Assembly (NCBI GenBank): GCA_902384585.1
Contig: CABMCJ010000002.1
Coordinates: 156,179 to 220,178 of the forward strand
Source of the DNA: Candidatus Anstonella stagnisolia
Lineage (GTDB): Archaea; Micrarchaeota; Micrarchaeia; Anstonellales; Anstonellaceae
Reading direction: 5' to 3'
Length of the DNA: 64,000 nucleotides
Shown here: in pieces, positions 4,576-27,042 of the stretch
Layout of the letters: each line of letters starts with the position of its first letter
Numbering within the stretch: the first letter of the stretch is position 1
Position numbers and translations under genes: made by a program
The notes under the pieces: model-generated
Database searches by the model: none
The model's input: only the letters and a program-made list of their open reading frames with translations
What the model was told of the DNA's origin: nothing

Positions 4576-5190
4576 TTAGGGCTTGTTGCGCCTTGCAAGC
4601 TCCCTGTTTATGTCCCCTATGCTTATTCCTGCTGCGTATGCAAGCGCAAGAGTGTGGTAGAGCAGGTCTGCAGCTTCCCATGTGATGTCCTTTTTGCCCT
4701 TCTCTTGAACTGCCTCTATGAGCTCTTCGGACTCCTCGCGCACCTTTGAAATGGAAAGGGACTTGCTGCGCAGGAGTTTGGCAGTATATGAGCCGGCAGG
4801 TGCGTTCTTTTTTCTTTCCTCTATGAGCTGCGCTAGCGAGAGCAGGGTGAAATCAGGCTCGCCAAAGCAGGCTTTTTCCCCAGTGTGGCATGCGACGCCC
4901 TTTTGCTTCACAGTGAAGAGAAGAGCGTCAGAATCACAGTCCTTTTTCACAGAGAGCACTTGCTGCGTATTGCCGCTTTGCTCGCCTTTTTTCCAGAGGC
5001 GCTTTCTGCTCCTGCTAAAGTAGTGCATAAAACCGGTCGTGAGGGTGAGAAGGAGGGCGCGCTTATCCATGAAGGCGACCATAAGAACGTCCTTTGCGCT
5101 GTTTTGAACTACTGCTGCAGCTAGCCCGTTGCATTTTGAAAAATCAACGGAATTTGCAAATTTTTCTGCTGCGGTTTTTGAGAATTTCAT
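4576..5190 (-). CDS. hisIE: Bifunctional phosphoribosyl-AMP cyclohydrolase / phosphoribosyl-ATP pyrophosphatase
   Basis: The N-terminal HisI signature is VVQ...VLMVAFMDKRAL...GEQSGNTQ. The C-terminal HisE-like helical region is EESEELIEA...DITWEAADLLYHTLAL. Confidence 0.85.
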   Translation of the reverse strand: MKFSKTAAEKFANSVDFSKCNGLAAAVVQNSAKDVLMVAFMDKRALLLTLTTGFMHYFSRSRKRLWKKGEQSGNTQQVLSVKKDCDSDALLFTVKQKGVACHTGEKACFGEPDFTLLSLAQLIEERKKNAPAGSYTAKLLRSKSLSISKVREESEELIEAVQEKGKKDITWEAADLLYHTLALAYAAGISIGDINRELARRNKP

Positions 5191-5202
5191 GGTTTTGCCC
5201 GC

Positions 5203-5952
5203 TTACCTGACTGCTATTTTCAAGCTCTTTAAGCCTTTTTTGAGTTTTTCCACTGTTGTTTCTTTCCTGTGGAGAATTCCTGCGAGAAGCGCGGCATCCG
5301 CGCCGCTTTTGAGGACTTTTGCAATATCGCGTGCGCTGCCCGCGCCGCCGGATGCGATTACTGGGATATTGACTGCGCGGGAGACTGCTGCATTCAGCCC
5401 AACGTCATACCCGGAATTTGAGCCGTCCTTGTCCATGCTTGTGAGAAGGATTTCGCCCGCGCCAAGGGAAGCTGCCTTCTTTGCCCAGGAGATTGCGTCT
5501 ATTCCTGTATCTTTTCTTCCCCCGTATGTGAAAACAGTCCAGCTATTTTGGGAGCGTTTTGCGTCTATTGCTACCACGACTGCCTGCGAGCCGAATTTCC
5601 TTGCGATTTTGGAGATGAGTGCGGGGTTTTCGACTGCGGCAGTATTTATGGAAATTTTGTCCGCGCCGTTTTGGAGGATTTCGCCTGCATCAGAGGGCGT
5701 GCGTATGCCCCCGCCCACTGTGAAGGGGATGAAGATCTCCTGTGCAACCGCGCGTGTGAGGCGCTTTATTGTGCCACGCCCCTGCGCGGAAGCTGCAATA
5801 TCGAGGAACACCAGCTCGTCCGCGCCTTCCCTGTAGTATTTTTTTGCAAGGGAGAGCGCATCCCCTGCGTACGCTAGGCGCTTGAAGGATTTTCCTTTCA
5901 CGACCTTGCCGCCCTTAACGTCAAGGCAGGGGATTATGCGCTTAAGTTGCAT
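5203..5952 (-). CDS. hisF: Imidazole glycerol phosphate synthase, cyclase subunit
   Basis: LKRIIPCLDVKGGKVVKG...FTVGGGIR...GADKISINTAAV are the canonical HisF TIM-barrel motifs. Confidence 0.9.
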   Translation of the reverse strand: MQLKRIIPCLDVKGGKVVKGKSFKRLAYAGDALSLAKKYYREGADELVFLDIAASAQGRGTIKRLTRAVAQEIFIPFTVGGGIRTPSDAGEILQNGADKISINTAAVENPALISKIARKFGSQAVVVAIDAKRSQNSWTVFTYGGRKDTGIDAISWAKKAASLGAGEILLTSMDKDGSNSGYDVGLNAAVSRAVNIPVIASGGAGSARDIAKVLKSGADAALLAGILHRKETTVEKLKKGLKSLKIAVR

Positions 5953-5954
5953 AT

Positions 5955-6653
5955 CTAACGACCCGCTTCAATTGCCTCTTTCAGACTTATTTTTCCTGTG
6001 TAAAGCGCCTTTCCTATTATGCAGCCGTCAGCGCCCGCTTTCTTTACAGCGCGCACGTCCTCAAGGGAGGAGATGCCACCGGAGATAAAGAGCTTTTTTG
6101 AAACTGTTTTCCTCATTTGCTTTATTGCATCTGTGTCTGGGCCTTCAAGCATCCCATCGCGCGCAATGGAAGTGAATATTATGCGGCTGCAGAAGGGCTG
6201 TGCGGTTTTTGCGAATTCATAAGCATCGATTCCGGTATCCTTGAGCCAGCCGTTCGTGGAGATTTTCCCATCCCGCGCATCTATTGCGATTGCGATTTTT
6301 TTCGCGAATGGCTTAAGCGAAGAAAGGAACTTTTCGTCGTTCACTGCCGCGCTTGAGATAATGGGCGTTGCGGCTAGGGAGAGTATTTTATTCACGCTCT
6401 CGATTGTGCGTATGCCTCCCCCTATTTGCATCAGGCAGATGTAGCTGAGCTGGTCTAGGATGTCGAAGTTAGTGAGATTCCCGTTTTTTGCGCCTTCCAA
6501 ATCAACAACGTGCACAAGCTTCGCACCCTGGGACACGAACTCGCGCGCGGTTTCTGCGGGCGAATCCGAATACTCTTTTGCGCTTGTGTAGTCCCCTTGC
6601 GTAAGCCTTACGCATTTTTTCCTCAGGAGGTCTATTGCCGGTATTACTTGCAT
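5955..6653 (-). CDS. hisA: ProFAR isomerase
   Basis: MQVIPAIDL...VHVVDLEGAK...GGGIRT...GADGCIIGKALY is the HisA pattern. The start is taken at the second Met so it does not overlap hisH. Confidence 0.9.
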   Translation of the reverse strand: MQVIPAIDLLRKKCVRLTQGDYTSAKEYSDSPAETAREFVSQGAKLVHVVDLEGAKNGNLTNFDILDQLSYICLMQIGGGIRTIESVNKILSLAATPIISSAAVNDEKFLSSLKPFAKKIAIAIDARDGKISTNGWLKDTGIDAYEFAKTAQPFCSRIIFTSIARDGMLEGPDTDAIKQMRKTVSKKLFISGGISSLEDVRAVKKAGADGCIIGKALYTGKISLKEAIEAGR

Positions 6654-6654
6654 A

Positions 6655-7317
6655 TTATGCACCTTTTGCACGCGCGCTTGCCCGCATTTGCTGCACGCTG
6701 CTTGCCAGTTCTGCCTGCCGCTTTTTTGCCTGTGTGGCTATTTTCACGAAGTTGCTCAAAAGCTTAAGCCCGCACGCGCCGCTTTTCTCCGGGTGGAACT
6801 GCACCGCAAAGAGGTTTTCGCGCTCTAGCGATGCAACGAAATTCTCTTTGCCTGCTTTTGAGAACGAACTTGCATTTTCGCTTTCCTTTATTGCGTAGGA
6901 GTGGCAGAAATAGAAAATCGGGGAACGTATGCCGGAAAAAAGCCTTCCTTTGCGCACTTTCACTTCCCGCCAGCCAACATTGGGAAGCTTTTTGCATTTG
7001 AGCCTGCGCACCTTTCCTGAAAAAATTCCAAGCGCGCTTCCCCTTGCCTCTTCGCTCTCTTCAAAGAGGAGCTGCATGCCCAAACAGATGCCAAGAAAGG
7101 GCTTTTTTGAGATTGAATCCAAAATTGGCTTTCGCAGTTTTGCGAGCCTCTTTGCACATGAAAAAGAACCGACGCCCGGAAGGACTATTGCATCCGCTTT
7201 TTGCAAATCTTTTCCTGTTTTTGCAATGGAAACGTCCGCCCTGCATTTTCTTAGTGCATTCGCTGCGCTGCCGATGTTGCCTGCACCGTAATCTATTATT
7301 GCAATTTTGAGTTCCAT
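6655..7317 (-). CDS. hisH: Imidazole glycerol phosphate synthase, glutamine amidotransferase subunit
   Basis: IAIIDYGAGN...GVGSF...GICLGMQLLFE...VQFHPEKSG is the class I GATase catalytic triad context. Confidence 0.9.
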   Translation of the reverse strand: MELKIAIIDYGAGNIGSAANALRKCRADVSIAKTGKDLQKADAIVLPGVGSFSCAKRLAKLRKPILDSISKKPFLGICLGMQLLFEESEEARGSALGIFSGKVRRLKCKKLPNVGWREVKVRKGRLFSGIRSPIFYFCHSYAIKESENASSFSKAGKENFVASLERENLFAVQFHPEKSGACGLKLLSNFVKIATQAKKRQAELASSVQQMRASARAKGA

Positions 7318-7324
7318 TTTATCA

Positions 7325-8161
7325 CTATTTTACTATCCTCTCTATATCGAGCAAGAGAATGTCGCTTGCGCCCGCTTGCTTGAGGTTGTAGATGAGCGAA
7401 TTTATGCCCCTGCGCTGCACAACGGAGTGCAGGGCAAACATCCCTTTTGCAGCAAGTGGCATCATGGTGGGCGATTTCATGCCTCCAAGCAAATTCGCAA
7501 CCGCCTCGAGGTTTTTCTCCTGCACGTTGAGCATTAGGTATGCCTTTTCCTCTGCGAGAAGAACGCCCTTTATGGAAAGTGCGAGCTCTTCGGTTTTTTG
7601 CCGCGAGGCATCGGAGCATATGAGCACTGCCTGGGAATCCATTATTTTTTCAAGTTCGCACAGGTTGTTGAGCGCAAGTGTTGAGCCCGTGCTCACTTGG
7701 TCTATTATTGCGTCTGCAATTCCAAGATAGGGAGTGAGCTCTGTTGCGCCCGCAACCTTGAGTATTTTTACGCTCATGCGTTTTGAGGCAAAAAAAGAAG
7801 AGGCGATTTTGGGAAGCCGCGTTGCGATTGTCTTTCCCCCAAGGGATTGGAGGGTTGCGCCTTTTTTTGAAGCAAGCGAGATGCGGCATTTCCCAAAGCC
7901 AAGCGGGCAAAGCTGCTGCACTTTTGCGCCCGCTTCCGCTATCATGTCGGAGCCTGTTATGCCGCAGTCCGCTGCCCCGCTCTCCACGTACTTGGGAACG
8001 TCGTCTGCGCGCGCAAAGAGGATTGTGCATGAGCCATCCGCGCTTTTTACAAAGAGGGAGCCGTTGGACTCCTCTATTTCAATCCCTGCTGCGCGAAGCA
8101 GCGCTAAGGAAGGCTCGCGCAGCCTGCCTTTGTTTGGTATTGCTATTTTCAACGTGTTCAT
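7325..8161 (-). CDS. hisG: ATP phosphoribosyltransferase (long form)
   Basis: LKIAIPNKGRL...GSDMI...ATRLPKIA is HisG-like; 278 aa. Confidence 0.85.
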   Translation of the reverse strand: MNTLKIAIPNKGRLREPSLALLRAAGIEIEESNGSLFVKSADGSCTILFARADDVPKYVESGAADCGITGSDMIAEAGAKVQQLCPLGFGKCRISLASKKGATLQSLGGKTIATRLPKIASSFFASKRMSVKILKVAGATELTPYLGIADAIIDQVSTGSTLALNNLCELEKIMDSQAVLICSDASRQKTEELALSIKGVLLAEEKAYLMLNVQEKNLEAVANLLGGMKSPTMMPLAAKGMFALHSVVQRRGINSLIYNLKQAGASDILLLDIERIVK

Positions 8162-8198
8162 TCTATCACCTTGCTTTGCGCATTGCGCAAGCGCATTT

Positions 8199-8792
8199 TC
8201 ATATCATCCCTTTTGTACTCGGAATTTTGCCCTCTGCATTCTTGCTTACGCTAACTGCCTGCGAAAGGGCTTTTGCAAAGCCCTTGAAAATCCCCTCGCA
8301 CTTGTGGTGGTCGTTCCCATCGTAGAGATTGCGTATGTGCAAATTGCATCTTGCGCCCTGCACAAAGCCTGCAAAGAACTCCTTTATGAGGTCGGACTGG
8401 AGCTCTCCTATGAATTCGCGCTCAAACCTTGCATCAAAGTTAAGGTATGCCCTTCCTCCGAAGTCAAGTGCGATGCACGAAAGCGTTTCATCCATAGGGT
8501 ATGCAAAGAGAAAGGAGCCTGCGCGGGAAATACCTTTTTTGTCCCCTAGGGCTTGCGAAAAGGCACTGCCAAGCGCTATCCCTACATCCTCTACAAGGTG
8601 GTGCTGGTCCACCTCAAGGTCCCCTTTTGCAACTAGGGTGAGGTCGAATAAGCCGTGCTTTGCAAAGGAGAGAAGCATGTGGTCAAAGAAGCCGATGCCG
8701 GTTTGCACGCTTGCATCGCCCTTGCCGTCCAGGTTAAGCTTAAGGGAAATCTGCGTCTCTTTTGTATTCCTTTCTATTTTTGAAATTCTCAT
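8199..8792 (-). CDS. hisB: Imidazoleglycerol-phosphate dehydratase
   Basis: MRISKIERNTKETQISL...GIGFFDHML...HHLVEDVGIALG are the IGPD motifs. The start is trimmed to the Met at 8792, which overlaps the hisC stop by 4 nt. Confidence 0.9.
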   Translation of the reverse strand: MRISKIERNTKETQISLKLNLDGKGDASVQTGIGFFDHMLLSFAKHGLFDLTLVAKGDLEVDQHHLVEDVGIALGSAFSQALGDKKGISRAGSFLFAYPMDETLSCIALDFGGRAYLNFDARFEREFIGELQSDLIKEFFAGFVQGARCNLHIRNLYDGNDHHKCEGIFKGFAKALSQAVSVSKNAEGKIPSTKGMI

Positions 8793-10537
8793 ATTAGCAC
8801 CCCGAGTATTTCGTCTGTTTTTCGCAAGTTCCAGTTTCCTTTCACATTCTTGTTCGCAACCATTGCAACTGGAACCCCTGCTGCATTGCACGCTCGCTCA
8901 TCTGAAATGCTGTCCCCTATGTAAAGCGGGGAGGAATAGCCAAGCTCTGCGAGCCTCTTTTTCGCAAGCAGGATTGGGGCGGGCGATGGCTTTTCCTGCG
9001 CACAGTCCTCCTGGCATACAATGCACTCCTCAAGGAAATATGCGCCCCATTTGTTTGCATCAAGCGCATATTGGAGCTCTTCGCGCGGGCGGCTTGTCAC
9101 TATTCCAAGCGCAAAACCCATATTTTGGAGCGACTGGAGCGTGCTCTCTTTTATGAGGGGCGTTTCAAGGGAGCGGAGCGAGAAATAGTTTGCGTTGAAT
9201 GCGTTGCGCAATTGGGAATAGAGAGCGGTTTGCTTTTCTTCTTGGGAAAGCGGTTTTGCGGATTGCAGGTTTTTCCCAGCAAGTGAAACAATCCTGTAAG
9301 TTGCGTCCCATTCGTTGTTGAAGCCGTATACACCTTTTATTGTGAGGACATCTTTCATTGAGACGCGCGCTGTTTCGCCTGTTTTTCCAAAATATTCGTT
9401 TGCGGTTTTTTCTATTGAGAAAAGGTATGAGCGCGAAACGTCAAGAAGAACGCCGTCCACGTCAAATAGGATGCTGTCAAATTTTGAGGGGGAGCGGATA
9501 AGCTTGCGGAGGGCTGCAAGCAGAAGGTTGTTTTCCTTCCTTGTTCCAACGCTTATGCGAAGCGTGTTTGGAATGCCTTTCACGCTTGAGCGGTCGCGCA
9601 CGAGTATCCTGAATTTCTCCTCAAGCTCGCGCTGCAGAAGGGTTGCGCTTTTTGTGCCTGCAGGCGGGCGCACTAGGATGAAATTAGTTATAGATGGGCA
9701 AACAGAAAATCCGAGGGATACTAGTTCTTTTGAAAGCCGTGACCTTTCCTTTGAAATCTTTTGCACATTTTTTTCCATTAGGGATTGTTTTTTCAGGGCT
9801 GCAAGCGCAATTTGCACGTTTGGGGAACTTATGTTGTAGGGAAGGCGCACGCGAAGCATGAATGAGAGGAGCGCTGGATTTGAGATTGCGTACCCTATGC
9901 GCACGCCTGCCAAGCCCCATGCCTTTGAGAGCGTGCGGCACACGAGCAAATTGGGGTATTTTTCAATTAGCTGGACTGCGCTTTTTCCGCCGAACTCTAT
10001 GTATGCCTCGTCCACAAAAACTATTGCGTTTGCATTTTTTGCGATTTCCTCTATCTCGCCCAAATCCGTTTCTGCCCCAAGCGGGCTGTTTGGGGAAACT
10101 ATGAAAATCATTTTTGTGCGCGCATCCGCTGCTGCAAGAACTGCGTCTGCATCAAGGGAAAAGTTTGCGAATGTGCCTTCAAGGGAAACTTTTTTCACTT
10201 GCGCACCGTTTGCAAGCGCGCATATCCCGTACATAGAGTAGCCTGGCTCAACGCAAAGTACGTTGTCTCCGGCACCGGCGAATGTGCGCACTGCAATGTC
10301 AATTATTTCGTCAGAGCCGTTTCCAACAAGCACATTTTCCGCCTTGCATTTGGAATATTTCGCAAGCGCTGCGCGAAGTTCCTTGTAGTCAGTATCCGGG
10401 TAGCGGTTAAGCTTTCCGGAGATTGCATACGGGCTCTCGTTGAAATCAAGGAGCACGCTGCCCATGTTGCGGGGGTATTCGTAGCTTGCGCGCAAAATTT
10501 GCGGGCGCACGAGTGAGGTTAGTTGTTTTGTGCCCAT
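8789..10537 (-). CDS. hisC: Histidinol-phosphate aminotransferase fused to a C-terminal HAD-superfamily phosphatase domain
   Basis: The N-terminal ~350 aa is a class II aminotransferase (HisC-like; TLSKAWGLAGVRIGY PLP-lysine context). The C-terminal ~220 aa carries HAD motifs I (FDVDGVL), II (GIVTS), III (K in EKPSPAP) and IV (IGDSISD). Confidence 0.8.
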   Translation of the reverse strand: MGTKQLTSLVRPQILRASYEYPRNMGSVLLDFNESPYAISGKLNRYPDTDYKELRAALAKYSKCKAENVLVGNGSDEIIDIAVRTFAGAGDNVLCVEPGYSMYGICALANGAQVKKVSLEGTFANFSLDADAVLAAADARTKMIFIVSPNSPLGAETDLGEIEEIAKNANAIVFVDEAYIEFGGKSAVQLIEKYPNLLVCRTLSKAWGLAGVRIGYAISNPALLSFMLRVRLPYNISSPNVQIALAALKKQSLMEKNVQKISKERSRLSKELVSLGFSVCPSITNFILVRPPAGTKSATLLQRELEEKFRILVRDRSSVKGIPNTLRISVGTRKENNLLLAALRKLIRSPSKFDSILFDVDGVLLDVSRSYLFSIEKTANEYFGKTGETARVSMKDVLTIKGVYGFNNEWDATYRIVSLAGKNLQSAKPLSQEEKQTALYSQLRNAFNANYFSLRSLETPLIKESTLQSLQNMGFALGIVTSRPREELQYALDANKWGAYFLEECIVCQEDCAQEKPSPAPILLAKKRLAELGYSSPLYIGDSISDERACNAAGVPVAMVANKNVKGNWNLRKTDEILGVLI

Positions 10538-10541
10538 AATA

Positions 10542-11819
10542 TCACTTTTTTATTCTTTCAAGCGCACTTTTTGCGTGCGCCTGCAACCCTTCTGCATTTG
10601 CAATTTCCGCGGTATTTTCCGCAAGCGTTGCAAGCCCGCTTTTTTTCACTTCTATTATTTCCACTGTTTTCATGAAGGAGGAAACTGACAAGCCGCCTGC
10701 GAACTTTGCGCTCCCGCCTGTTGGGAGCACGTGGTTTGAGCCAACGCAGTAGTCCCCGAATGCCTCGCAGGAGTTTTCCCCTACAAAAATTGCGCCAGCG
10801 TAGCGGATGAGGGGGAGGAGCTTGTTTGCACTTTTCAGCTGGATTTCAAGGTGTTCGGGTGCGAACTCGTTTGAGAAATCCACTATTTGCTGCAAGTCCT
10901 CAAAGTTTGCAGTAACTAAAATCAAATTTTGCAGGGACTTTTGCAATATTGTGCTCCTTGAAAGCGTTTTTGCCTGCGAAGATGCCTCTTTTCTTATCTC
11001 TGCTGCCATTTCTTCCTTGCATATCACAACCGCAATGGAATCCTCGCCGTGCTCAAGCTGTGCGAGGCAGTCTGCTGCGATTGTTCGCGCATTCGCACTT
11101 TCATCCGCAATTATGAGCACTTCGGTGGGTCCCGCAAGCATGTCTATGTCGCAGGTTTCGCTGCGCACCTGCCGTTTTGCCTCTGTTACATAGGAATTGC
11201 CGGGCCCGACTATTTTTTGAACTTTTGGAACAGTTTGCGTTCCGTATGCCATTGCCGCGATTGCCTGAGCGCCGCCTATTGCATAAACTTCTTTTATGCC
11301 GCAAATTGCGCACGCTGCAAGCACTGCGTCCGAAGGGGAAGGGGAGCAGAGGATGAGCTTTTCGACACCAGCAACCTGTGCGGGGATTGCGCACATAAGA
11401 ACTGTGGATGGGTAGGCTGCTTTTCCCCCTGGGGCGTATATCCCCGCGCTTTTTATGGGAACTGTTCTTTGCGTTATTTTTGCATAGGCGTTGTCTATTG
11501 TTTTTTCTTTTGGAACGGACTTAGTGCACGTTTCCCGTATGTTTTTTGCCGCAAACTGGAGGGCGGATAGAAGCTTAGGAGGAATGCATTCTTTTGCGCA
11601 TTTTATTTCGTCTTGGCTTATGCGCATTTCCGGTATGGATTGTATGCCTCCGAACTTGCGCTCATAGAAGAGGATTCCCTCGTCTCCTTGGGACTTCACG
11701 CGCGAGAGGATTTCGCTCACGCTGGCATCAACGCCCTGCATTTTAGCATTTTTGCGAAGGGATGCGGGGTTGCATTCGGATAGTTTGTATTCTAGTGCCA
11801 TGTTAAACACGCTCTGCAT
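10542..11819 (-). CDS. hisD: Histidinol dehydrogenase
   Basis: AGIYAPGGKAAYPSTVLM...GIKEVYAIGGAQAIAAMAYGT...IVGPGNSYVTEAKR is the HisD signature. The start is placed at an internal Met; the ORF extends to 11873. Confidence 0.9.
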   Translation of the reverse strand: MQSVFNMALEYKLSECNPASLRKNAKMQGVDASVSEILSRVKSQGDEGILFYERKFGGIQSIPEMRISQDEIKCAKECIPPKLLSALQFAAKNIRETCTKSVPKEKTIDNAYAKITQRTVPIKSAGIYAPGGKAAYPSTVLMCAIPAQVAGVEKLILCSPSPSDAVLAACAICGIKEVYAIGGAQAIAAMAYGTQTVPKVQKIVGPGNSYVTEAKRQVRSETCDIDMLAGPTEVLIIADESANARTIAADCLAQLEHGEDSIAVVICKEEMAAEIRKEASSQAKTLSRSTILQKSLQNLILVTANFEDLQQIVDFSNEFAPEHLEIQLKSANKLLPLIRYAGAIFVGENSCEAFGDYCVGSNHVLPTGGSAKFAGGLSVSSFMKTVEIIEVKKSGLATLAENTAEIANAEGLQAHAKSALERIKK

Positions 11820-11947
11820 GGAAGGGCGTGGGTGCCCTACTGATGAAGAAGGACTTTCTCTGCTGTATCCCACATTTTTCCCATATGCCCATTTTATGGG
11901 GAAACAGGTATTTAAAGCTATCGCTTTGGCGGCGAAAGAAAAACAAA

Positions 11948-12352
11948 CTAGAGCTTCTTTATCTGGACGCTTTTTGCAAGCCTTTGGGAGAGAAGGAGTT
12001 TCTCAAGCGCTGCGGGCGATTTTTTGCATGAGGAGAAATCAAGGAGCGCCTCGTAAGTTGCGGACTGCCCGCGCATGCGGCTTGAGGACTCGCTCCAGAT
12101 AAGGTCTGCGCCCTCTTTTGCAAGGAGAAGGAGGATTTTGGAAAGAGTTCCGGGGGAATCAGACATTTCGAGGCGCAAATGGTGCAGCTCCTCGCCCATT
12201 GCGGCAAAGGGGACTACTGAAATTGTTTTTTTCTCATCGTCAAGGAGGAGAAGGACGTTTGAGTTGGACTTGAGGTTGAGCATTTCGCGAAAAGATGCCG
12301 GGACTATTAGGCGTCCGCGCTCGTCTATGCGTCCAACTGAATTTTTTGCCAT
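11948..12352 (-). CDS. AbrB/SpoVT-type DNA-binding domain fused to an ACT domain (putative regulator)
   Basis: VGRIDERGRLIVPASFREMLNL is a swapped-hairpin AbrB/MazE-like N-terminus. The C-terminal LRLEMSDSPGTLSKILLLLAKEGADLIWSES is ACT-like. Confidence 0.55.
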   Translation of the reverse strand: MAKNSVGRIDERGRLIVPASFREMLNLKSNSNVLLLLDDEKKTISVVPFAAMGEELHHLRLEMSDSPGTLSKILLLLAKEGADLIWSESSSRMRGQSATYEALLDFSSCKKSPAALEKLLLSQRLAKSVQIKKL

Positions 12353-12391
12353 ATGTTCACTTTTTTGCCAAGAGCGCAACCTTCTTCGCCC

Positions 12392-13666
12392 TTAGTGCGA
12401 TTTCTTGCCTTGGAGTTTCTTTATTGCCTCTTCTATTGAGCACAATTCCTCGTCGCCGCTTTTCAAGTCACGAAGCGTGAGCTTTTTCGCAGCCTTTTCC
12501 TTTTCCCCTACGATTGCAATATATGCAACACCGCTTGCGTTTGCATAGTCAAACTGCTTTCTCAAATTTCTCTCAAGCAAATCAAGCTCGCAATTTATGC
12601 CTTTTTGGCGAAGTGCCCATGCGATTTCAACTGCATATTCAAAAAATTCAGGCTTTGCGTTTGCGATAAAGAGCTGCGCGACTGCGGAAGTTGCACCCTC
12701 GGATTTCTTTTTCTCCTCAAGGAGCGCAATCAGGCGCTCTATCCCAAGGGAAATCCCTACTGCGGGGGAGGGAACGCCGTACGTGCCCACCATATTGTCG
12801 TATCTGCCGCCGCCTGCAACTGAACCGATTTCTTCGGATGCGGAAATTTCAAACACGCTTCCTGTGTAGTAGTCAAGCCCGCGCACCAAGGAAAGGGAAA
12901 TTTCAGGCTCAAAGCTGTAAAGTTTGCACGCATTTACAACTGCCTCAAGCTCGTTTGCGCCCTCTGTTGCGAAATCGCCGAGGGTTTTTTTCACAAAGGA
13001 AATTGTTTTTTCGTTTGTGCCGGAGAAGGAGATGAATTTCTCTATTTCGGATGCAGCTTTTTCGGAAATGCCCTTCATTATCATTTCTTCCTTTATTTTT
13101 TCAAGTGTCTGCTTTCCGACCTTGTCAAGCGCGCGGAACATTGCGTTTTGCTTTTCTTGGGGAATGCCTGTTTTTTGAGCAAGAGCGTTGAGAACCTTGC
13201 GGTTGTTGAGCATTAGTTTGGGTGCGGGAAAGCCGAGCTTGAAGAGTGCGAATTTTGCGCACGCGAGAAGCTCTGCCTCGCAGCGGGGGGAAGTGGAACC
13301 TACTACATCTATGTCTGCCTGGAAGAATTCCCTAAAGCGCCCTTTTTGCGGCTCCTCGCGCCTCCATACTGGCGCAATGCAATAGCGCTTGAAGGGAAGC
13401 GGGAAAGAATTTGAAGCGACAACGCGCGAAAGCGGGACTGTGAGGTCAAAGCGCAGGCCCATTCCGCCCTCTATTTGGAATATTTGCCCTTCTATCTCGT
13501 CCCCGCCTTTTTTCTGGAGCACTTCGAGTTTCTCTATTGCGGGCGTTGCGAGCGGGAGGTAGCCAAAAGAGCGGAAAACCCCTTCTATTTTTTGCATTGT
13601 GTCCAAGCGCACGTTCATTTGCGCCGGAAGGAAATCGCGCATTCCTTTTGGTACTGTATAGTCCAT
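12392..13666 (-). CDS. hisS: Histidyl-tRNA synthetase
   Basis: Class II aaRS motifs (MRDFLP, FRYE-like FDLTVPLSRVV, GGGRYD) plus a C-terminal anticodon-binding domain, which makes it HisRS rather than HisZ. Confidence 0.85.
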   Translation of the reverse strand: MDYTVPKGMRDFLPAQMNVRLDTMQKIEGVFRSFGYLPLATPAIEKLEVLQKKGGDEIEGQIFQIEGGMGLRFDLTVPLSRVVASNSFPLPFKRYCIAPVWRREEPQKGRFREFFQADIDVVGSTSPRCEAELLACAKFALFKLGFPAPKLMLNNRKVLNALAQKTGIPQEKQNAMFRALDKVGKQTLEKIKEEMIMKGISEKAASEIEKFISFSGTNEKTISFVKKTLGDFATEGANELEAVVNACKLYSFEPEISLSLVRGLDYYTGSVFEISASEEIGSVAGGGRYDNMVGTYGVPSPAVGISLGIERLIALLEEKKKSEGATSAVAQLFIANAKPEFFEYAVEIAWALRQKGINCELDLLERNLRKQFDYANASGVAYIAIVGEKEKAAKKLTLRDLKSGDEELCSIEEAIKKLQGKKSH

Positions 13667-13674
13667 TTGCACAC

Positions 13675-14013
13675 CTATTGGAGGAAGGGTTCTATCCATT
13701 TTTTCAGCGCATCCTTGCTGGAGCCGCCCACGCGCGTAGTGATGGGCTTTCCATCCTTGAAGAGCATAAGCGTTGGGATGCTTGAGATGCCGAACTGGGA
13801 GGAGAGCTCCTGTTGCTCGTCCACGTTCACTTTTTTTATCTCAAGCTTTCCGGAAAGTTCCTTTGAGAGGGTTTCCATTGTGGGCATGAGCATTTTGCAC
13901 GGGCCGCACCAAGGTGCCCAGAAATCAACAAGCACAACGCCTTTTGAGGTTGCCTTTGAGAATGTGTCTTTTGTAAGCTCTTCCATATTTTCACCTACCC
14001 ATCTTTTGCCCAC
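13675..14013 (-). CDS. trxA: Thioredoxin
   Basis: WAPWCGPCKM is the active-site motif; 112 aa. Confidence 0.85.
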   Translation of the reverse strand: MGKRWVGENMEELTKDTFSKATSKGVVLVDFWAPWCGPCKMLMPTMETLSKELSGKLEIKKVNVDEQQELSSQFGISSIPTLMLFKDGKPITTRVGGSSKDALKKWIEPFLQ

Positions 14014-14031
14014 AAGGAATTAAAATGAGTG

Positions 14032-14502
14032 CTACTCTGGGGCTGGCGCGAGTTCGCTGAAGTATTCCTTGAATTTTTGCGTTGTGCGCACGGACTTTGA
14101 GCGCCCTGCGCGCTTTTGCTCCACAAAGCCCTTTTCAACAAGCTCTGCGACGTCATTGTATATTGTGCTTCCGAGCTTGCGGAAGAGCTCGCGCTTTGTA
14201 ATGCCGTTGAACTTGTTTATGTAGGCAAGCGTCTTGAGCGCGTGGCGGCTTATTTCCGCCTCTTTTGCAAATTCCTTTGCGACTTGCGCGTATTCGCCCC
14301 TAAGAGTCATGTAGTATTTGCCGTCCTCGCACACCACTTTTACGGAACTGCCGAATTTTTCGTATTCGGACATTAACTCCTTTACTTTTGTGTCCACGTA
14401 GCCGGGCGCTGCGACTTTGATGAGTTTTCCAATCTCCATCGCCGTAAGCGAGCGGGAGCTCATGAAAAGCGCGGCTTCAATTGTTTTTAGCTGTTCGTCC
14501 AT
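14032..14502 (-). CDS. scpB: Segregation and condensation protein B-like (winged helix)
   Basis: The IEAALFMSSRSLT N-terminus is typical of ScpB. The protein is a tandem winged helix and sits next to an ScpA-like gene. Confidence 0.65.
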   Translation of the reverse strand: MDEQLKTIEAALFMSSRSLTAMEIGKLIKVAAPGYVDTKVKELMSEYEKFGSSVKVVCEDGKYYMTLRGEYAQVAKEFAKEAEISRHALKTLAYINKFNGITKRELFRKLGSTIYNDVAELVEKGFVEQKRAGRSKSVRTTQKFKEYFSELAPAPE

Positions 14503-15515: not shown

Positions 15516-16319
15516 TTACTGTGGATAGCCGGGGTTTTCGTACAAAAGGCGGATTTCCCCTGCGGAAAGCGGGCGGTTGAAAATCATCACTTCGTCTATT
15601 GTGCCGTTGAAGTTGTAATCGCCGGTAGCGCTGCCGGAGTATGTGCCTATGTAGATTGTGGCTGCACCGGAGCCGGTGTCTGCTTCCCTTGTGGAATTGC
15701 CAGCAATTGAGGCTTCGTTCCCATTAAAGTAGAATTTTGGCATGTCCCAGGAGGTGTCCTCAACTATTGCGACATGCTGCCAAACGCCGTTAGTGAGCCC
15801 GGTGGAAGTATAGGTGCGCCAGTTAGTTGCGCCATAATAGTAGTACCTTAGGACGTTTGAGGATTTGTCCATCCAGTATTGGGTGCCCTTGTCCAAAACT
15901 GCACCGCGCTGGTTGTCCGTGGGTTTTATCCATGCGATTAATGTCCTTGTGGCGGGCAGGCTCAATCCGTTTCCGCACGATACGTAATCGTCCGCGCCGT
16001 CGTATTCCAGGGCATAGTTGCTTTTTCCAGAAGTCCAAGTTGGGGAGCGCGTAGCATTCGCGCTGAACGTGCAATTTGCGCCGCCTTTGCTGTCTATGGA
16101 AGTTGTGCCGCCATTTTCATCGAATTTCCAATATGCGACCAAGCCCTGCAAAAGGTCTGGGTATTCCATTAACGCTATGCTGAACTGTATGTCCGACTGC
16201 TGGTTTTTTGCGTCCTTTGCGCTTTCAATCGGCCAGAAAAGGACTATGGACACCATTAGGGCTACGAAAAGGATTGCCCCAAGAATAACCAGATACTCCG
16301 TAGCTCCTTGCGCTTTCAT
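15516..16319 (-). CDS. Archaeal type IV pilin-like protein (class III signal peptide) with a LamG/ConA-like lectin-fold domain
   Basis: The start is trimmed to MKAQGATEYLVILGAILFVALMVSIV, a prepilin-like signal with a hydrophobic helix. A LamG-type motif set follows (LVAYWKFDENGG ... GTIDEVMIFNRPLSAGEI). It is a paralog of 44775-45611. Confidence 0.65.
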   Translation of the reverse strand: MKAQGATEYLVILGAILFVALMVSIVLFWPIESAKDAKNQQSDIQFSIALMEYPDLLQGLVAYWKFDENGGTTSIDSKGGANCTFSANATRSPTWTSGKSNYALEYDGADDYVSCGNGLSLPATRTLIAWIKPTDNQRGAVLDKGTQYWMDKSSNVLRYYYYGATNWRTYTSTGLTNGVWQHVAIVEDTSWDMPKFYFNGNEASIAGNSTREADTGSGAATIYIGTYSGSATGDYNFNGTIDEVMIFNRPLSAGEIRLLYENPGYPQ

Positions 16320-16362
16320 GGGAATTCTTCTATAACAAACAAGAAAAAGGTTTGCGGGGCGT

Positions 16363-17547
16363 TTATGCGCCCTTTTGCGAATGCAGGTGCACGATTGGGA
16401 TTTGCACCCCTGCAGCCTTTGAGAACTGCTTCGCCTTTTTCTCAACAAGGGTGCAGAGCGCGGAGTCGGAATAGAGCACAAAGTCCTCGCCTATGCTTGT
16501 GGAAAGGAGCGCGTGCTCAAGGGCATGGAAGCGGTGGTGGAAATGCATTTGCGAGCGGGTTGCGAGCTCCTGCGCAGTAAGGCCGTATATGCCGGAATTT
16601 TCGTGCGGGATTTTCAGGGAAATCGGGGTGATGGGCTCCATTTTATCAACGCACACTATATGCAAGGTGCCTGCGCCGGAGGGACTGGCTGCGGTTTTTG
16701 CTCCCTGTGCCTTGTCTTTTATTGGGAAGAATTTTGCTGCTGCCTCTGCAAGCGAATGCGGGCGGGGGGACTCCGGCTCTTTTGTGCGCAAATGCCTCTG
16801 CTCGTTGAGCTGGAAGAGAAGAGGGGGGGTGAGGCCTATTGGGTGCAAAAGTTCGGGCTGGGAAAAAAGCGAATCAGGCGTGCCGCTGAAAATATGCGCC
16901 CCGCGGTTGAGCACTATTACGTTGTCCGCCCATTCGTATGCGGTTTCCACGTCGTGCGTGGAAATCACGATTGTTTTTCCAAAATGGTTGAGCTCTTCGG
17001 AAAGTTCAAGGAGCTCGTGCACCATTTGAGAGTCAAGCCCTGCTGTTGGCTCGTCCATTATGAGGACTTGGGGATCCATTGCAAGCGCGCCTGCGAGCGC
17101 AACGCGCTTTTTCTGCCCAAAAGAGAGCTGCTGTGTGGGGCGCTCCCTGTATTCCTCCATCCCGACTGCTGCAAGGGACTCCTGCACTCGCCTTGAAACT
17201 TCGGCTGCAGGCAGGCCCATGTTGAGCGGCCCAAATGCGATGTCCTCCTCTACGGAAGGCGCGAAAATCTGGTCGTCGGGGTTTTGGAAAACAAGGGAGA
17301 TTTTTGAGCGGAGGAGCGAGAGGGATTTTGCATCGTAAGGGACGGGCTTCCCCTCAAAGAGCACCTCGCCTTCCTGCGCCTTGTGCACGCCGTTGAAATG
17401 TAGGAAGAGCGTGCTTTTTCCTGCGCCGTTTGGGCCAAGTATCACTGTTTTCTTCCCTTTTTCTATTGAGAGGGAGACGTTTGAAAGCGCGGCATTCCCT
17501 GCCTCGTAGGAGAAAGAAAGGTTTTTTGTTTGAAGTATTTGTTCCAT
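16363..17547 (-). CDS. nikO: ECF/ABC transporter ATPase component (NikO/CbiO) with a ~120-aa His-containing C-terminal extension
   Basis: Walker A GPNGAGKST, signature LSFGQKKRV and Walker B LIMDEPTAGLD. The C-terminal extension contains MHFHHRFHALEH. Confidence 0.85.
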   Translation of the reverse strand: MEQILQTKNLSFSYEAGNAALSNVSLSIEKGKKTVILGPNGAGKSTLFLHFNGVHKAQEGEVLFEGKPVPYDAKSLSLLRSKISLVFQNPDDQIFAPSVEEDIAFGPLNMGLPAAEVSRRVQESLAAVGMEEYRERPTQQLSFGQKKRVALAGALAMDPQVLIMDEPTAGLDSQMVHELLELSEELNHFGKTIVISTHDVETAYEWADNVIVLNRGAHIFSGTPDSLFSQPELLHPIGLTPPLLFQLNEQRHLRTKEPESPRPHSLAEAAAKFFPIKDKAQGAKTAASPSGAGTLHIVCVDKMEPITPISLKIPHENSGIYGLTAQELATRSQMHFHHRFHALEHALLSTSIGEDFVLYSDSALCTLVEKKAKQFSKAAGVQIPIVHLHSQKGA

Positions 17548-25959: not shown

Positions 25960-26001
25960 GCAGGCATTTGAGGTAGATATTTTAAATAGGTTGGGGAAAA
26001 T

Positions 26002-27042
26002 TTGGGTATGGGCAAAATACAATCAAGGAAGGAAGAGCACGTGAGGATATGCCTTGAAGAGGACGTGCAGTACGCGCGCGGGCCGGGCTTTTCGGACATT
26101 GAGTTTTTGCACAATTCCGTGCCTGAGCTTGACATGGGGAAAATTGACATTGGCACAAGCTTTTTCGGCAGGAAAATGGATGCGCCGCTCATAATAGACG
26201 GGATGACTGGGGGATACCCGAAGGCGAAAGAGATAAACAAGAGGCTTGCTGCTGCGGCTGCAGAGCACAACGTGCCATTTGGGCTGGGCAGCCAGCGCGC
26301 GATGGTGGAAAACCCCATTCTCACGCAAACCTATGCGGTGCGCGACGTTGCGCCGGATGTTTTCATAATAGGGAATATCGGGGCTGCGCAAATTGCGCAC
26401 TATCCAATTGCAAAGATAAAGAGCGCGCTTGAGGCAATTGATGCGAATGCGCTTGCGGTGCATTTGAATGCATTGCAGGAGGCAGTTCAGCCCGAGGGGG
26501 ACCGCAACTTCGAGGGAGTGCTGCACGCAATTTCAAGATTGTCGGATTCGCTCAAGATACCGATTATTGCAAAGGAGACGGGCGCGGGGATTTGTGCGGA
26601 CTCTGCGGTGCGCCTGAAGAACGCGGGAGTCCAAATGCTGAACGTTTCTGGAAGCGGGGGAACATCCTGGAGCAAAGTGGAATATTTGAGGGGAAAGCCT
26701 GTGGAAGGGTTTGAAGAATGGGGAATCCCGACTGTTGTGAGCATTGTTTCCTGCGCGCACCATCTTCCGCTAATTGCATCGGGAGGGGTGAGAAGCGGCT
26801 TGGATGCTGCCAAAGCAATTGCATTGGGGGCCAAAATGGCTGCTGGGGCGCATCCTTTCCTGGCTGCGAAAAATCCGGCGGACGAGATGGGGAAGTGGAA
26901 AATGCAATTAAGGACTGCGATGTTCCTTTCGGGATGTGCGAACCTTGAGAAATTGGGGAAGAGCCGCATATTCGTTACGGGAAGAACGAAGCAGCTTCTT
27001 GAATGCCTGCGCGTGGACGTAAGCGAGTATGCGATGCGGTAA
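26002..27042 (+). CDS. fni: Isopentenyl-diphosphate delta-isomerase, type 2 (FMN-dependent)
   Basis: RKEEHVRICLEE...FGRKMDAPLIIDGMTGG...GSQRAM...ASGGVRSGLDAAKAIALGA are the IDI-2 TIM-barrel motifs. Confidence 0.85.
   Translation: MGMGKIQSRKEEHVRICLEEDVQYARGPGFSDIEFLHNSVPELDMGKIDIGTSFFGRKMDAPLIIDGMTGGYPKAKEINKRLAAAAAEHNVPFGLGSQRAMVENPILTQTYAVRDVAPDVFIIGNIGAAQIAHYPIAKIKSALEAIDANALAVHLNALQEAVQPEGDRNFEGVLHAISRLSDSLKIPIIAKETGAGICADSAVRLKNAGVQMLNVSGSGGTSWSKVEYLRGKPVEGFEEWGIPTVVSIVSCAHHLPLIASGGVRSGLDAAKAIALGAKMAAGAHPFLAAKNPADEMGKWKMQLRTAMFLSGCANLEKLGKSRIFVTGRTKQLLECLRVDVSEYAMR

Follow-up and report, generated by a model that had tools for sequence, protein, structure and literature searches.

In Bacillus subtilis, the regulators AbrB, Abh and SpoVT join an N-terminal swapped-hairpin DNA-binding domain to a C-terminal multimerisation or sensor domain, which is a GAF domain in SpoVT. 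Members of the AbrB group are usually repressors, and AbrB and Abh bind pairs of TGGNA with A/T-rich spacers, arranged either inverted (TNCCA-WWWW-TGGNA) or in tandem (PMC3025583). In this work we describe a comparable protein of 134 residues from the DPANN archaeon Candidatus Anstonella stagnisolia (Micrarchaeota), encoded in the 64,000-nucleotide stretch at positions 156,179 to 220,178 of contig CABMCJ010000002.1 (called the window below, with position 1 at its first letter). Its gene lies between hisS and hisD at the head of the histidine (his) operon, as the initial annotation of this DNA had placed it, and comparative sequence evidence makes the product a good candidate for the first archaeal histidine-operon regulator. 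It resembles AbrB, Abh and SpoVT in domain arrangement and in its predicted recognition of TGGNA-type pairs. However, the C-terminal domain here is an ACT domain, the promoters are archaeal and TATA-dependent, and the regulon is apparently small and metabolic rather than global.

MraZ has an AbrB-like fold as well and autoregulates its own operon via direct repeats near the promoter. The repeats of E. coli MraZ have the form TGGGN. MraZ consists of two tandem AbrB-like (UPF0040) halves in about 150 residues and has no sensor, whereas the protein in the window has one such half and an ACT domain. In Mollicutes, MraZ binds the direct repeats AAAGTG[T/G] (PMC8475190). Two further regulators, NikR (ribbon-helix-helix and ACT-like domains) and the archaeal Lrp/AsnC proteins (helix-turn-helix and RAM domains), also combine a small dimeric DNA-binding domain with an ACT-fold sensor whose ligand shifts the affinity for the operator, but their DNA-binding folds are different and NikR senses nickel.

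With respect to the predicted role, the counterpart is HisR, a histidine-dependent repressor of the TrpR family in Firmicutes and others, which is often encoded by the first gene of the his operon and has a site upstream of itself (PMC9413887). HisR has an unrelated fold, which rules out that the protein is HisR; it also recognises a 20-bp palindromic motif and is restricted to bacteria. Attenuators of the hisL type carry, at the 5' end of the operon mRNA, a short open reading frame (ORF) with codons for the end product, and leaderless leader peptides have been proposed in Deinococcus deserti, where the ORF starts at the first base of the transcript and contains only two regulatory codons (PMC4007540). 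Reviews and comparative studies of his regulation describe attenuators, T-boxes and HisR, all in bacteria only (PMC9413887, PMC10138114), and our literature search found no description of an archaeal his-operon regulator.

Domain structure of the protein

The protein consists of an N-terminal AbrB/SpoVT-type domain and a C-terminal ACT domain, in agreement with the AbrB/MazE-ACT fusion that the initial annotation had read from the sequence (the peptide it quoted corresponds to residues 6-25). The coordinates of both domains and of all other features are collected in Table 1. For the N-terminal domain, the AbrB family model TIGR01439 scores 30.0 bits on the window protein, above its cut-off of 28.3, and PF04014 matches 40 of 47 aligned family members. 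When the family profile was compared with the PDB, positions 1-50 matched the N-domains of AbrB, Abh and SpoVT with E-values of about 1e-6. Residues D10, G13, R14, P18 and R22, together with glycine G68 in the ACT loop, are invariant or near-invariant across the family alignments; for R14, two of the three alignments show no variation and the remaining one at least 90% conservation, and the same holds for R22. Both arginines align with AbrB arginines (the R15 and R23 equivalents), basic residues of the DNA-contacting loops of AbrB. The best Pfam match of the N-terminus is to PF02381 (MraZ; E 8e-4, below the gathering score), but identity with MraZ is ruled out, as there is a single N-terminal match (residues 9-28) and the remainder is ACT.

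For the C-terminal domain, PF01842 (ACT) matches 36 of the 47 aligned members at E<=0.01 (best 6e-12), and positions 53-129 of the profile match the ACT domains of TPH, PAH, aspartokinase, AHAS and prephenate dehydratase in the PDB, with E-values from 2e-6 to 1e-3. A monomer model was computed by AlphaFold (AF2) from a 42-sequence alignment, with an overall predicted local distance difference test score (pLDDT) of 88.6. In this model, residues 56-133 adopt the order beta-alpha-beta-beta-alpha-beta at pLDDT 90-96, with strands at 56-64, 83-93, 97-105 and 128-133 and helices at 69-79 and 113-122, while the N-terminal strands and short helix, modelled as a monomer only, have pLDDT 78-89. The best Foldseek matches of the model in the PDB are the ACT domains of PGDH, AF1403, PurU, homoserine dehydrogenase, aspartokinase, IlvN and PAH (E 4e-6 to 3e-3), and the matches also include SpoVT (2w1t) and NikR. 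The beta1-alpha1 loop of the ACT domain carries the conserved motif D65-x-P-G68-x-L70, in which at least 90% of members retain G68. A comparison of this ACT domain with the histidine-binding C-terminal domain of HisG from the same genome gave no similarity (E 0.71) and thus no support for a derivation from that domain.

Extent of the family and linkage to hisD

A word-indexed protein search with the single sequence returned four close relatives, and an exhaustive search of representative sequences was needed to reveal the family. The closest homologues, at 85-99% identity and with E-values from 1e-67 to 1e-74, belong to Candidatus Micrarchaeota assemblies. The exhaustive search gave 89 representative clusters at E<=1e-3, nearly all of them full-length matches of 125-140 residues, from Micrarchaeota, Thermoprotei, several Asgard lineages, Nanoarchaeota and Aenigmarchaeota. 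They are annotated in the source records as "hypothetical protein", "AbrB family transcriptional regulator" or "ACT domain-containing protein". The family is catalogued as PRK08577 (NF006352), an archaeal "hypothetical protein" of about 136 residues; residues 8-134 of the window protein align to positions 8-134 of the 136 in the model (E 2.7e-24), and all 42 members of a second family sample match it, with a best E-value of 3e-47. A literature search on AbrB with an ACT domain and on PRK08577 found no characterising paper, in keeping with the statement in the initial annotation that the architecture was not recognised as a characterised regulator.

The linkage of the gene to hisD was followed in related loci, which are labelled by L numbers. 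Besides the window, the gene lies directly upstream of hisD in L001, L016 and L026 (90% identity to the window protein), L017 (58%), L007 (57%), L018 (56%) and L011 (45%), so that the link is found in five lineages spanning 45-90% identity. On its other side the regulator gene is flanked by hisS in the window and L001, by an HhH-GPD glycosylase gene in L007, and by unannotated neighbours in the other lineages. Elsewhere hisS is found 465 nt upstream (L018) or 5 kb away on the other strand (L011), and its adjacency is limited to the window's own clade and one other lineage. Because the link to hisD was retained while the opposite flank changed, it appears to be under selection. One bacterial locus (L019), returned by a related-locus search with a narrow alignment, was a false match; the same search added two new lineages.

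In L030 and L067 (positions 5143-6160 of the latter), the regulator gene is followed by two small ORFs of 92 and 118 residues without a Pfam match, and by a third operator-like site; the whole run lies upstream of a bacterial-type S-adenosylmethionine synthetase gene (metK).

Candidate operator

Compared with the 90% relative, the window's spacer between the regulator gene and hisD has diverged everywhere but in one block, GC-TTTAAATA-CCTGTTT-CCCCATAAAATGGGCATATGGGAAAAATGTGGGATAC, in which TTTAAATA is the TATA box of the hisD-operon promoter. The block also aligns in L007, L017, L018 and L011, where the TATA box is followed by about 8 nt, CCCA, 13-14 nt and ATGGGnAAAAnnTGGGA; apart from this run of TATA box, about 8 nt and CCCA-N13/14-ATGGGnAAAAnnTGGGA, no block of the spacer is conserved in the six lineages. 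In the window, this candidate operator is made up of a CCCA/TGGG inverted pair and the direct repeats TGGGA-N6-TGGGA. Its core is the pentamer TGGGN/CCCA(C), which occurs in an inverted pair and in direct repeats at a spacing of 11 bp, and the operator reaches from about 7 nt past the TATA box over the expected start of transcription. The exact pattern TGGGAN6TGGGA occurs twice in the 64 kb compared with 0.26 expected. The motif fits what AbrB-type domains recognise, and the window's CCCCA-TAAAA-TGGGC fits the inverted form bound by AbrB and Abh.

Further sites were sought with the fixed pattern TGGG-N7-TGGG; the sites found in this way played no part in the definition of the motif. Within 700 bp of the regulator gene in nine clade loci, there are 13 matches while 0.99 are expected from the remainder of the same sequences (about 13-fold, Poisson P 6e-11), and none of the nine loci lacks a match. 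In L007 and L017, TGGG-N7-TGGG sites lie over the regulator's own start codon; in L030, L067 and L012, CCCAC-N6-CCCAC and the palindrome TCCCACGTGGGA are found upstream of the gene; in L015, the site TTCCCACTTAATTCCCAC stands just before its ribosome-binding site and ATG; in L018, a CCCA-N14-TGGG element seen by eye lies past the TATA box upstream of the gene; and in L013, a site in reverse orientation follows right after it. A scan of metagenomes with the DNA motif returned 55 loci, of which four were real (L026, L072, L030 and L067) and the rest were chance matches without related genes. No motif was found around the distant family members L008-L010, so the operator seems to be confined to the Micrarchaeota clade.

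Two further operator-like sites were found in the window. The second one, between the TATA-like ATTTTAATT and the trx start codon, heads the run of trx, hisS and the regulator gene, and is kept in the 90% relative as GTGGGACAAAGGTGGGT with an altered spacer. This position and conservation imply joint control of histidyl-tRNA synthetase (HisRS) and the regulator. The 39-nt gap from the hisS stop codon to the regulator ATG, as read from its sequence, has no TATA box, and the two genes are probably co-transcribed. The hisS promoters of L011, L013 and L018 have degenerate sites at best, and control of hisS is therefore likely to be lineage-specific. The third site, of the form TGGGG-N6-TGGGT-A-TGGGC, is weaker and known from the window only.

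Leader ORF of the his operon

The conserved ATG within the operator opens a short ORF of the pattern MGK[MKI]W[DE]... in every his-linked lineage. The TATA box always lies 23-25 nt before this ATG in all nine promoters (24 nt in the window), which implies a leaderless start of transcription at the mini-ORF. In the window its putative product is MGKMWDTAEKVLLHQ, and in L001 it is MGKKWDTEEKLSPHQ; the other products end in VLLHQQG (L026), PLLHH (L007), SVLHH (L017), VANHN (L018, 58 codons) and GFHRHN (L011). One or two His codons are among the last four codons in seven of the seven his-linked loci, each with a chance of 0.06-0.10 per lineage as judged from shuffles. Six of the seven mini-ORFs stop 30-37 nt ahead of the hisD ATG, and the one in L011 stops 68 nt ahead of it; their lengths, in contrast, vary between 15 and 58 codons. 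The corresponding ORFs (MGKRWEY...) at the L030 and L067 sites, away from his genes, have no His codon.

The 5' end of the mini-ORF fits a DNA motif better than a peptide, because its Lys codon is always AAA, its fourth codon is variable (M/K/I/R) and the third base of its Gly codon is free. As a whole, from the placement of its His codons, the mini-ORF may be a histidine-sensing leader peptide or attenuator. It resembles leaders of the hisL and Deinococcus types, but it differs from them in having only one or two His codons, which immediately precede the stop, and no clear terminator/antiterminator pair, and in being archaeal and putative.

The RNA of the leader was also examined. L007, L017 and L018 share an invariant stem UUGCUGCC/GGCAGCGG with variable loops, which begins 2-3 nt past the mini-ORF stop and takes in the first Gs of the GGUG ribosome-binding site of hisD; no covariation was found in this hairpin among the three. 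The window leader has short stems other than these. Folding of the leader RNA was not clearly better than that of shuffled sequences, with weak z-scores and no clear alternative pairing, and an Rfam scan of positions 11700-12450 gave no match. Given these results, an RNA element in the his leader is not claimed.

A related arrangement was seen in L013 (6426-6500), where a TATA box and a reversed CCCAC-N6-CCCAC site lie past the regulator gene. This site is followed after 25 nt by a 17-codon ORF, MSNDWLCICGFRAHSHC, in which two of the last four codons encode His.

Neighbouring genes

The regulator gene starts at ATG 12352 and its stop codon occupies 11948-11950, the product beginning with MAKNSVGRIDERGRLIVPASFREML. 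An alternative start at TTG 12379 would add nine residues; the homologues and the PRK08577 model align from ATG 12352 instead. The neighbouring genes (trx, hisS, and hisD to hisIE) are all on the minus strand. The hisD ORF was listed as 10542-11873. Its true ATG is most likely at 11801, because indels which break the frame relative to the 90% relative lie upstream of this position.

Table 1. Features of the regulator locus in the window and of the corresponding mini-ORFs in related loci.
Feature	Position	Strand	Basis and remarks
AbrB-ACT protein gene, 134 residues	11948..12352	-	ORF and translation; full-length homologues; PRK08577 match, E 2.7e-24
AbrB/SpoVT-type (swapped-hairpin) DNA-binding domain, residues 1-50	12203..12352	-	TIGR01439; family profile against PDB; conserved residues
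ACT domain, residues 55-134 (beta-alpha-beta-beta-alpha-beta)	11951..12190	-	AF2 model; Foldseek; family profile
TATA box TTTAAATA of hisD-operon promoter	11909..11916	-	read from sequence; conserved in six lineages; predicted function
Candidate operator CCCCATAAAATGGGCATATGGGAAAAATGTGGGA	11868..11901	-	conserved block in otherwise diverged spacer; predicted binding
Mini-ORF MGKMWDTAEKVLLHQ, apparently leaderless, starting inside operator	11837..11884	-	His codon CAT at 11843-11845; putative translation
Mini-ORF spacer to hisD ATG	11802..11836	-	short predicted hairpins: GGGC..GCCC; CACGC..GCGUG over the Shine-Dalgarno (SD)-like GCGTG
Second operator-like site GTGGGCAAAAGATGGGT	13997..14013	-	between TATA-like ATTTTAATT (14018-14026) and trx ATG (13986)
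Third, weaker operator-like site TGGGGAAAATTTGGGTATGGGC	25992..26013	+	between TATA box and ATG (26008) of the type-2 isopentenyl diphosphate (IPP) isomerase gene
Type-2 IPP isomerase gene	26008-27042	+	TIGR02151, 371 bits (cut-off 281)
trx (thioredoxin)	13675-13986	-	upstream of hisS
hisS (histidyl-tRNA synthetase)	12392..13699	-	PF13393 and PF03129
hisD (histidinol dehydrogenase), first enzyme gene of operon	10542..11801	-	PF00815, E 1e-145; start reassigned
Rest of his operon	4576..10537	-	Pfam, tblastn; gene order and Pfam calls as in relatives
hisC-HAD fusion	8789-10537	-	hisC part above TIGR01141 cut-off
hisB	8199-8792	-	Pfam
hisG	7325-8161	-	Pfam
hisH	6655-7317	-	Pfam
hisA	5955-6671	-	Pfam
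hisF	5203-5952	-	Pfam
hisIE	4576-5190	-	Pfam
Mini-ORF in L001	8468-8515		
Mini-ORF in L007	6506-6580		
Mini-ORF in L017	7073-7147		
Mini-ORF in L018	6453-6629		
Mini-ORF in L011	6741-6791		

Some features of the surroundings deserve mention in their own right. The hisC product carries a HAD-type hydrolase domain at its C-terminus (residues about 355-560), and the fusion is retained in L001, L007, L011, L017 and L018. As HisB here is dehydratase-only, the fused domain may supply the missing histidinol-phosphate phosphatase and so join two consecutive steps. In L001, a ParE-toxin gene with a small partner gene (5652-6158) is placed between scpB and trx. The window is without this pair at the corresponding position (about 14013-14032), and its scpB-trx distance is only about 45 nt; the close strains differ here by the insertion or loss of a toxin-antitoxin pair. 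An ORF at 15516-16481 on the minus strand, between the scpA/scpB genes and a gene for a CbiO-like ABC ATPase, has what by eye resembles an archaeal class-III (type IV pilin-like) signal sequence, KAQGATEYLVILGAILFVALMV, followed by a large extracellular domain.

Proposed mechanism and alternative explanations

Taken from sequence comparison, the reading we favour, and which we regard as probable by a modest degree, is that the protein is a ligand-gated, autoregulated AbrB-ACT repressor of the his operon, with histidine as the most likely ligand. Archaeal repressors usually act in this way, by a protein bound near the TATA box or the start that blocks recruitment of RNA polymerase, and the candidate operator spans the bases from the TATA-proximal region to the expected start, where a bound protein would do so. 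The N-terminal domain would dimerise and bind pairs of the TGGGN (CCCA) pentamer about one helical turn apart. The ACT domains would pair across subunits and bind a small ligand, most likely an amino acid, which would alter the affinity for DNA. On the main site, which separates the TATA box of the his operon from its first transcribed bases, the protein would block recruitment of RNA polymerase; from the second site, ahead of trx, hisS and its own gene, it would in addition keep down the production of both itself and HisRS. Histidine would act as the co-repressor. We infer DNA binding, repression and the identity of the ligand from these comparisons. As a ligand, histidine is a best guess drawn from the targets only, because the his operon is the sole non-self target kept across lineages and the second site in the window controls hisS. 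In the window, the his operon and the hisS-containing unit are the two best-supported targets.

Several observations weigh against this reading. At the level of the protein, PF04014 and PF01842 score 18 and 13 bits on the window protein alone, compared with gathering scores of 24.7 and 27; the MazE/AbrB and ACT assignment is nonetheless secure, because the family members and the family profile match. The PRK08577 score of 85.8 bits is below the equivalog cut-off of 140 bits, which makes the window protein a divergent relative and not an equivalog. ACT-fold domains can also be mere oligomerisation modules. With regard to context, L030 and L067 (48-51% identity) are not linked to his genes within the clade and have metK downstream, L013 (41% identity) has no hisD downstream, and the distant members, on a Thermoprotei contig, in a 3.7-Mb genome and in a Nanoarchaeota genome (upstream of rpoH-rpoB), are not his-linked either. 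As for the operator, sites are also found in L030 and L067 before two further ORFs upstream of metK, and the third site in the window precedes an isoprenoid gene, so specificity for histidine may be lacking in the regulon and, as a consequence, in the ligand. The motif enrichment is partly circular, because the motif was first defined at hisD promoters; the sites at the regulator's own promoters form its non-circular part. Finally, the conserved block doubles as the start of the mini-ORF, and part of its conservation may have another cause.

The initial annotation had suggested a ligand-gated regulator of the his operon and co-occurrence with his operons as a check. On co-occurrence the answer is divided: the subclade is his-linked, while the wider family, and two lineages within the clade, are mostly away from his genes. 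The suggestion of a local regulator is strengthened by the hisD linkage in five lineages and by the motif at hisD and own promoters, and it is qualified by the sites before trx, the IPP isomerase gene and the ORF upstream of metK. We therefore regard that interpretation as partly supported, whereas the comparative evidence gives good support to the architecture and to a local role in regulation.

A serious rival is that the protein is a ligand-gated AbrB-type regulator of a broader regulon, which reports general amino-acid or metabolic status through a different signal, with the his operon as one target and histidine not the ligand. We consider this possible but clearly less likely than a histidine-responsive repressor. 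It would explain the operator-like sites before trx and the type-2 IPP isomerase gene in the window, those before the ORFs upstream of metK in L030 and L067, and the unrelated neighbours of family members in other phyla; DPANN genomes are also known to have few regulators. However, the hisD promoter alone is retained as a non-self target in five lineages, the site at the isomerase gene is the weaker one that is known from the window only, and in the window the trx site would also govern hisS and the regulator gene.

The evidence from the leader bears on two further proposals. The first is two-layer control, in which the AbrB-ACT protein would sense free histidine while the mini-ORF would sense the charging of His-tRNA, with ribosome pausing opening the hairpin over the ribosome-binding site of hisD. 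This is a tentative and rather unlikely proposal. The second is that histidine control acts in cis, by the His-codon mini-ORF and a hairpin, while the AbrB-ACT protein only autoregulates or is unrelated and the conserved block is a promoter and mini-ORF start. The His-ending mini-ORFs of all seven his-linked leaders, the nearly constant distance from their stop to hisD despite their different lengths, the TATA-to-ATG spacing suited to a leaderless start, and the comparable mini-ORFs without His at non-his loci all speak for such control. Against it, the pentamer repeats occur without a readable mini-ORF in L013 (reversed), in L067 and L012 (palindrome) and in L015 (before the SD sequence), and the codon pattern favours a DNA motif over a peptide. 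Moreover, both mechanisms can coexist, as with TrpR and trpL in E. coli, and we find control in cis as the main mechanism improbable.

It is very improbable that the protein is antitoxin-like or otherwise non-regulatory, with the ACT fold only a dimerisation scaffold: PF04014 carries the name of the MazE antitoxin and the C-terminal domain of B. subtilis AbrB is a multimerisation module only (PMC3025583), but a toxin gene adjoins the regulator in none of about 12 contexts, G68 of the ACT loop is near-invariant with D65 and L70 conserved, and an operator-like motif is associated with the gene. A type II antitoxin of the MazE or VapB kind in particular is ruled out, the neighbours being hisS and hisD, with no adjacent toxin in the contexts examined.

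Implications

The locus offers a testable trio: a protein of 134 residues, a motif that spans about 35 bp and is present at three promoters, and a short ORF in the leader. If the proposed repressor is confirmed, it would provide the first function for an AbrB-ACT family that is spread over several archaeal phyla, and if the site at the IPP isomerase gene is real, its regulon would extend past histidine. If the leader ORF works as proposed, ribosome-sensed attenuation would extend to archaea; should two-layer control hold, it would be, to our knowledge, the first ribosome-mediated attenuation in Archaea, paired with the first archaeal histidine regulator. Even if the ligand is not histidine, the protein would still give rare access to gene regulation in DPANN archaea, a group in which most members are uncultured and recognisable regulators are few.

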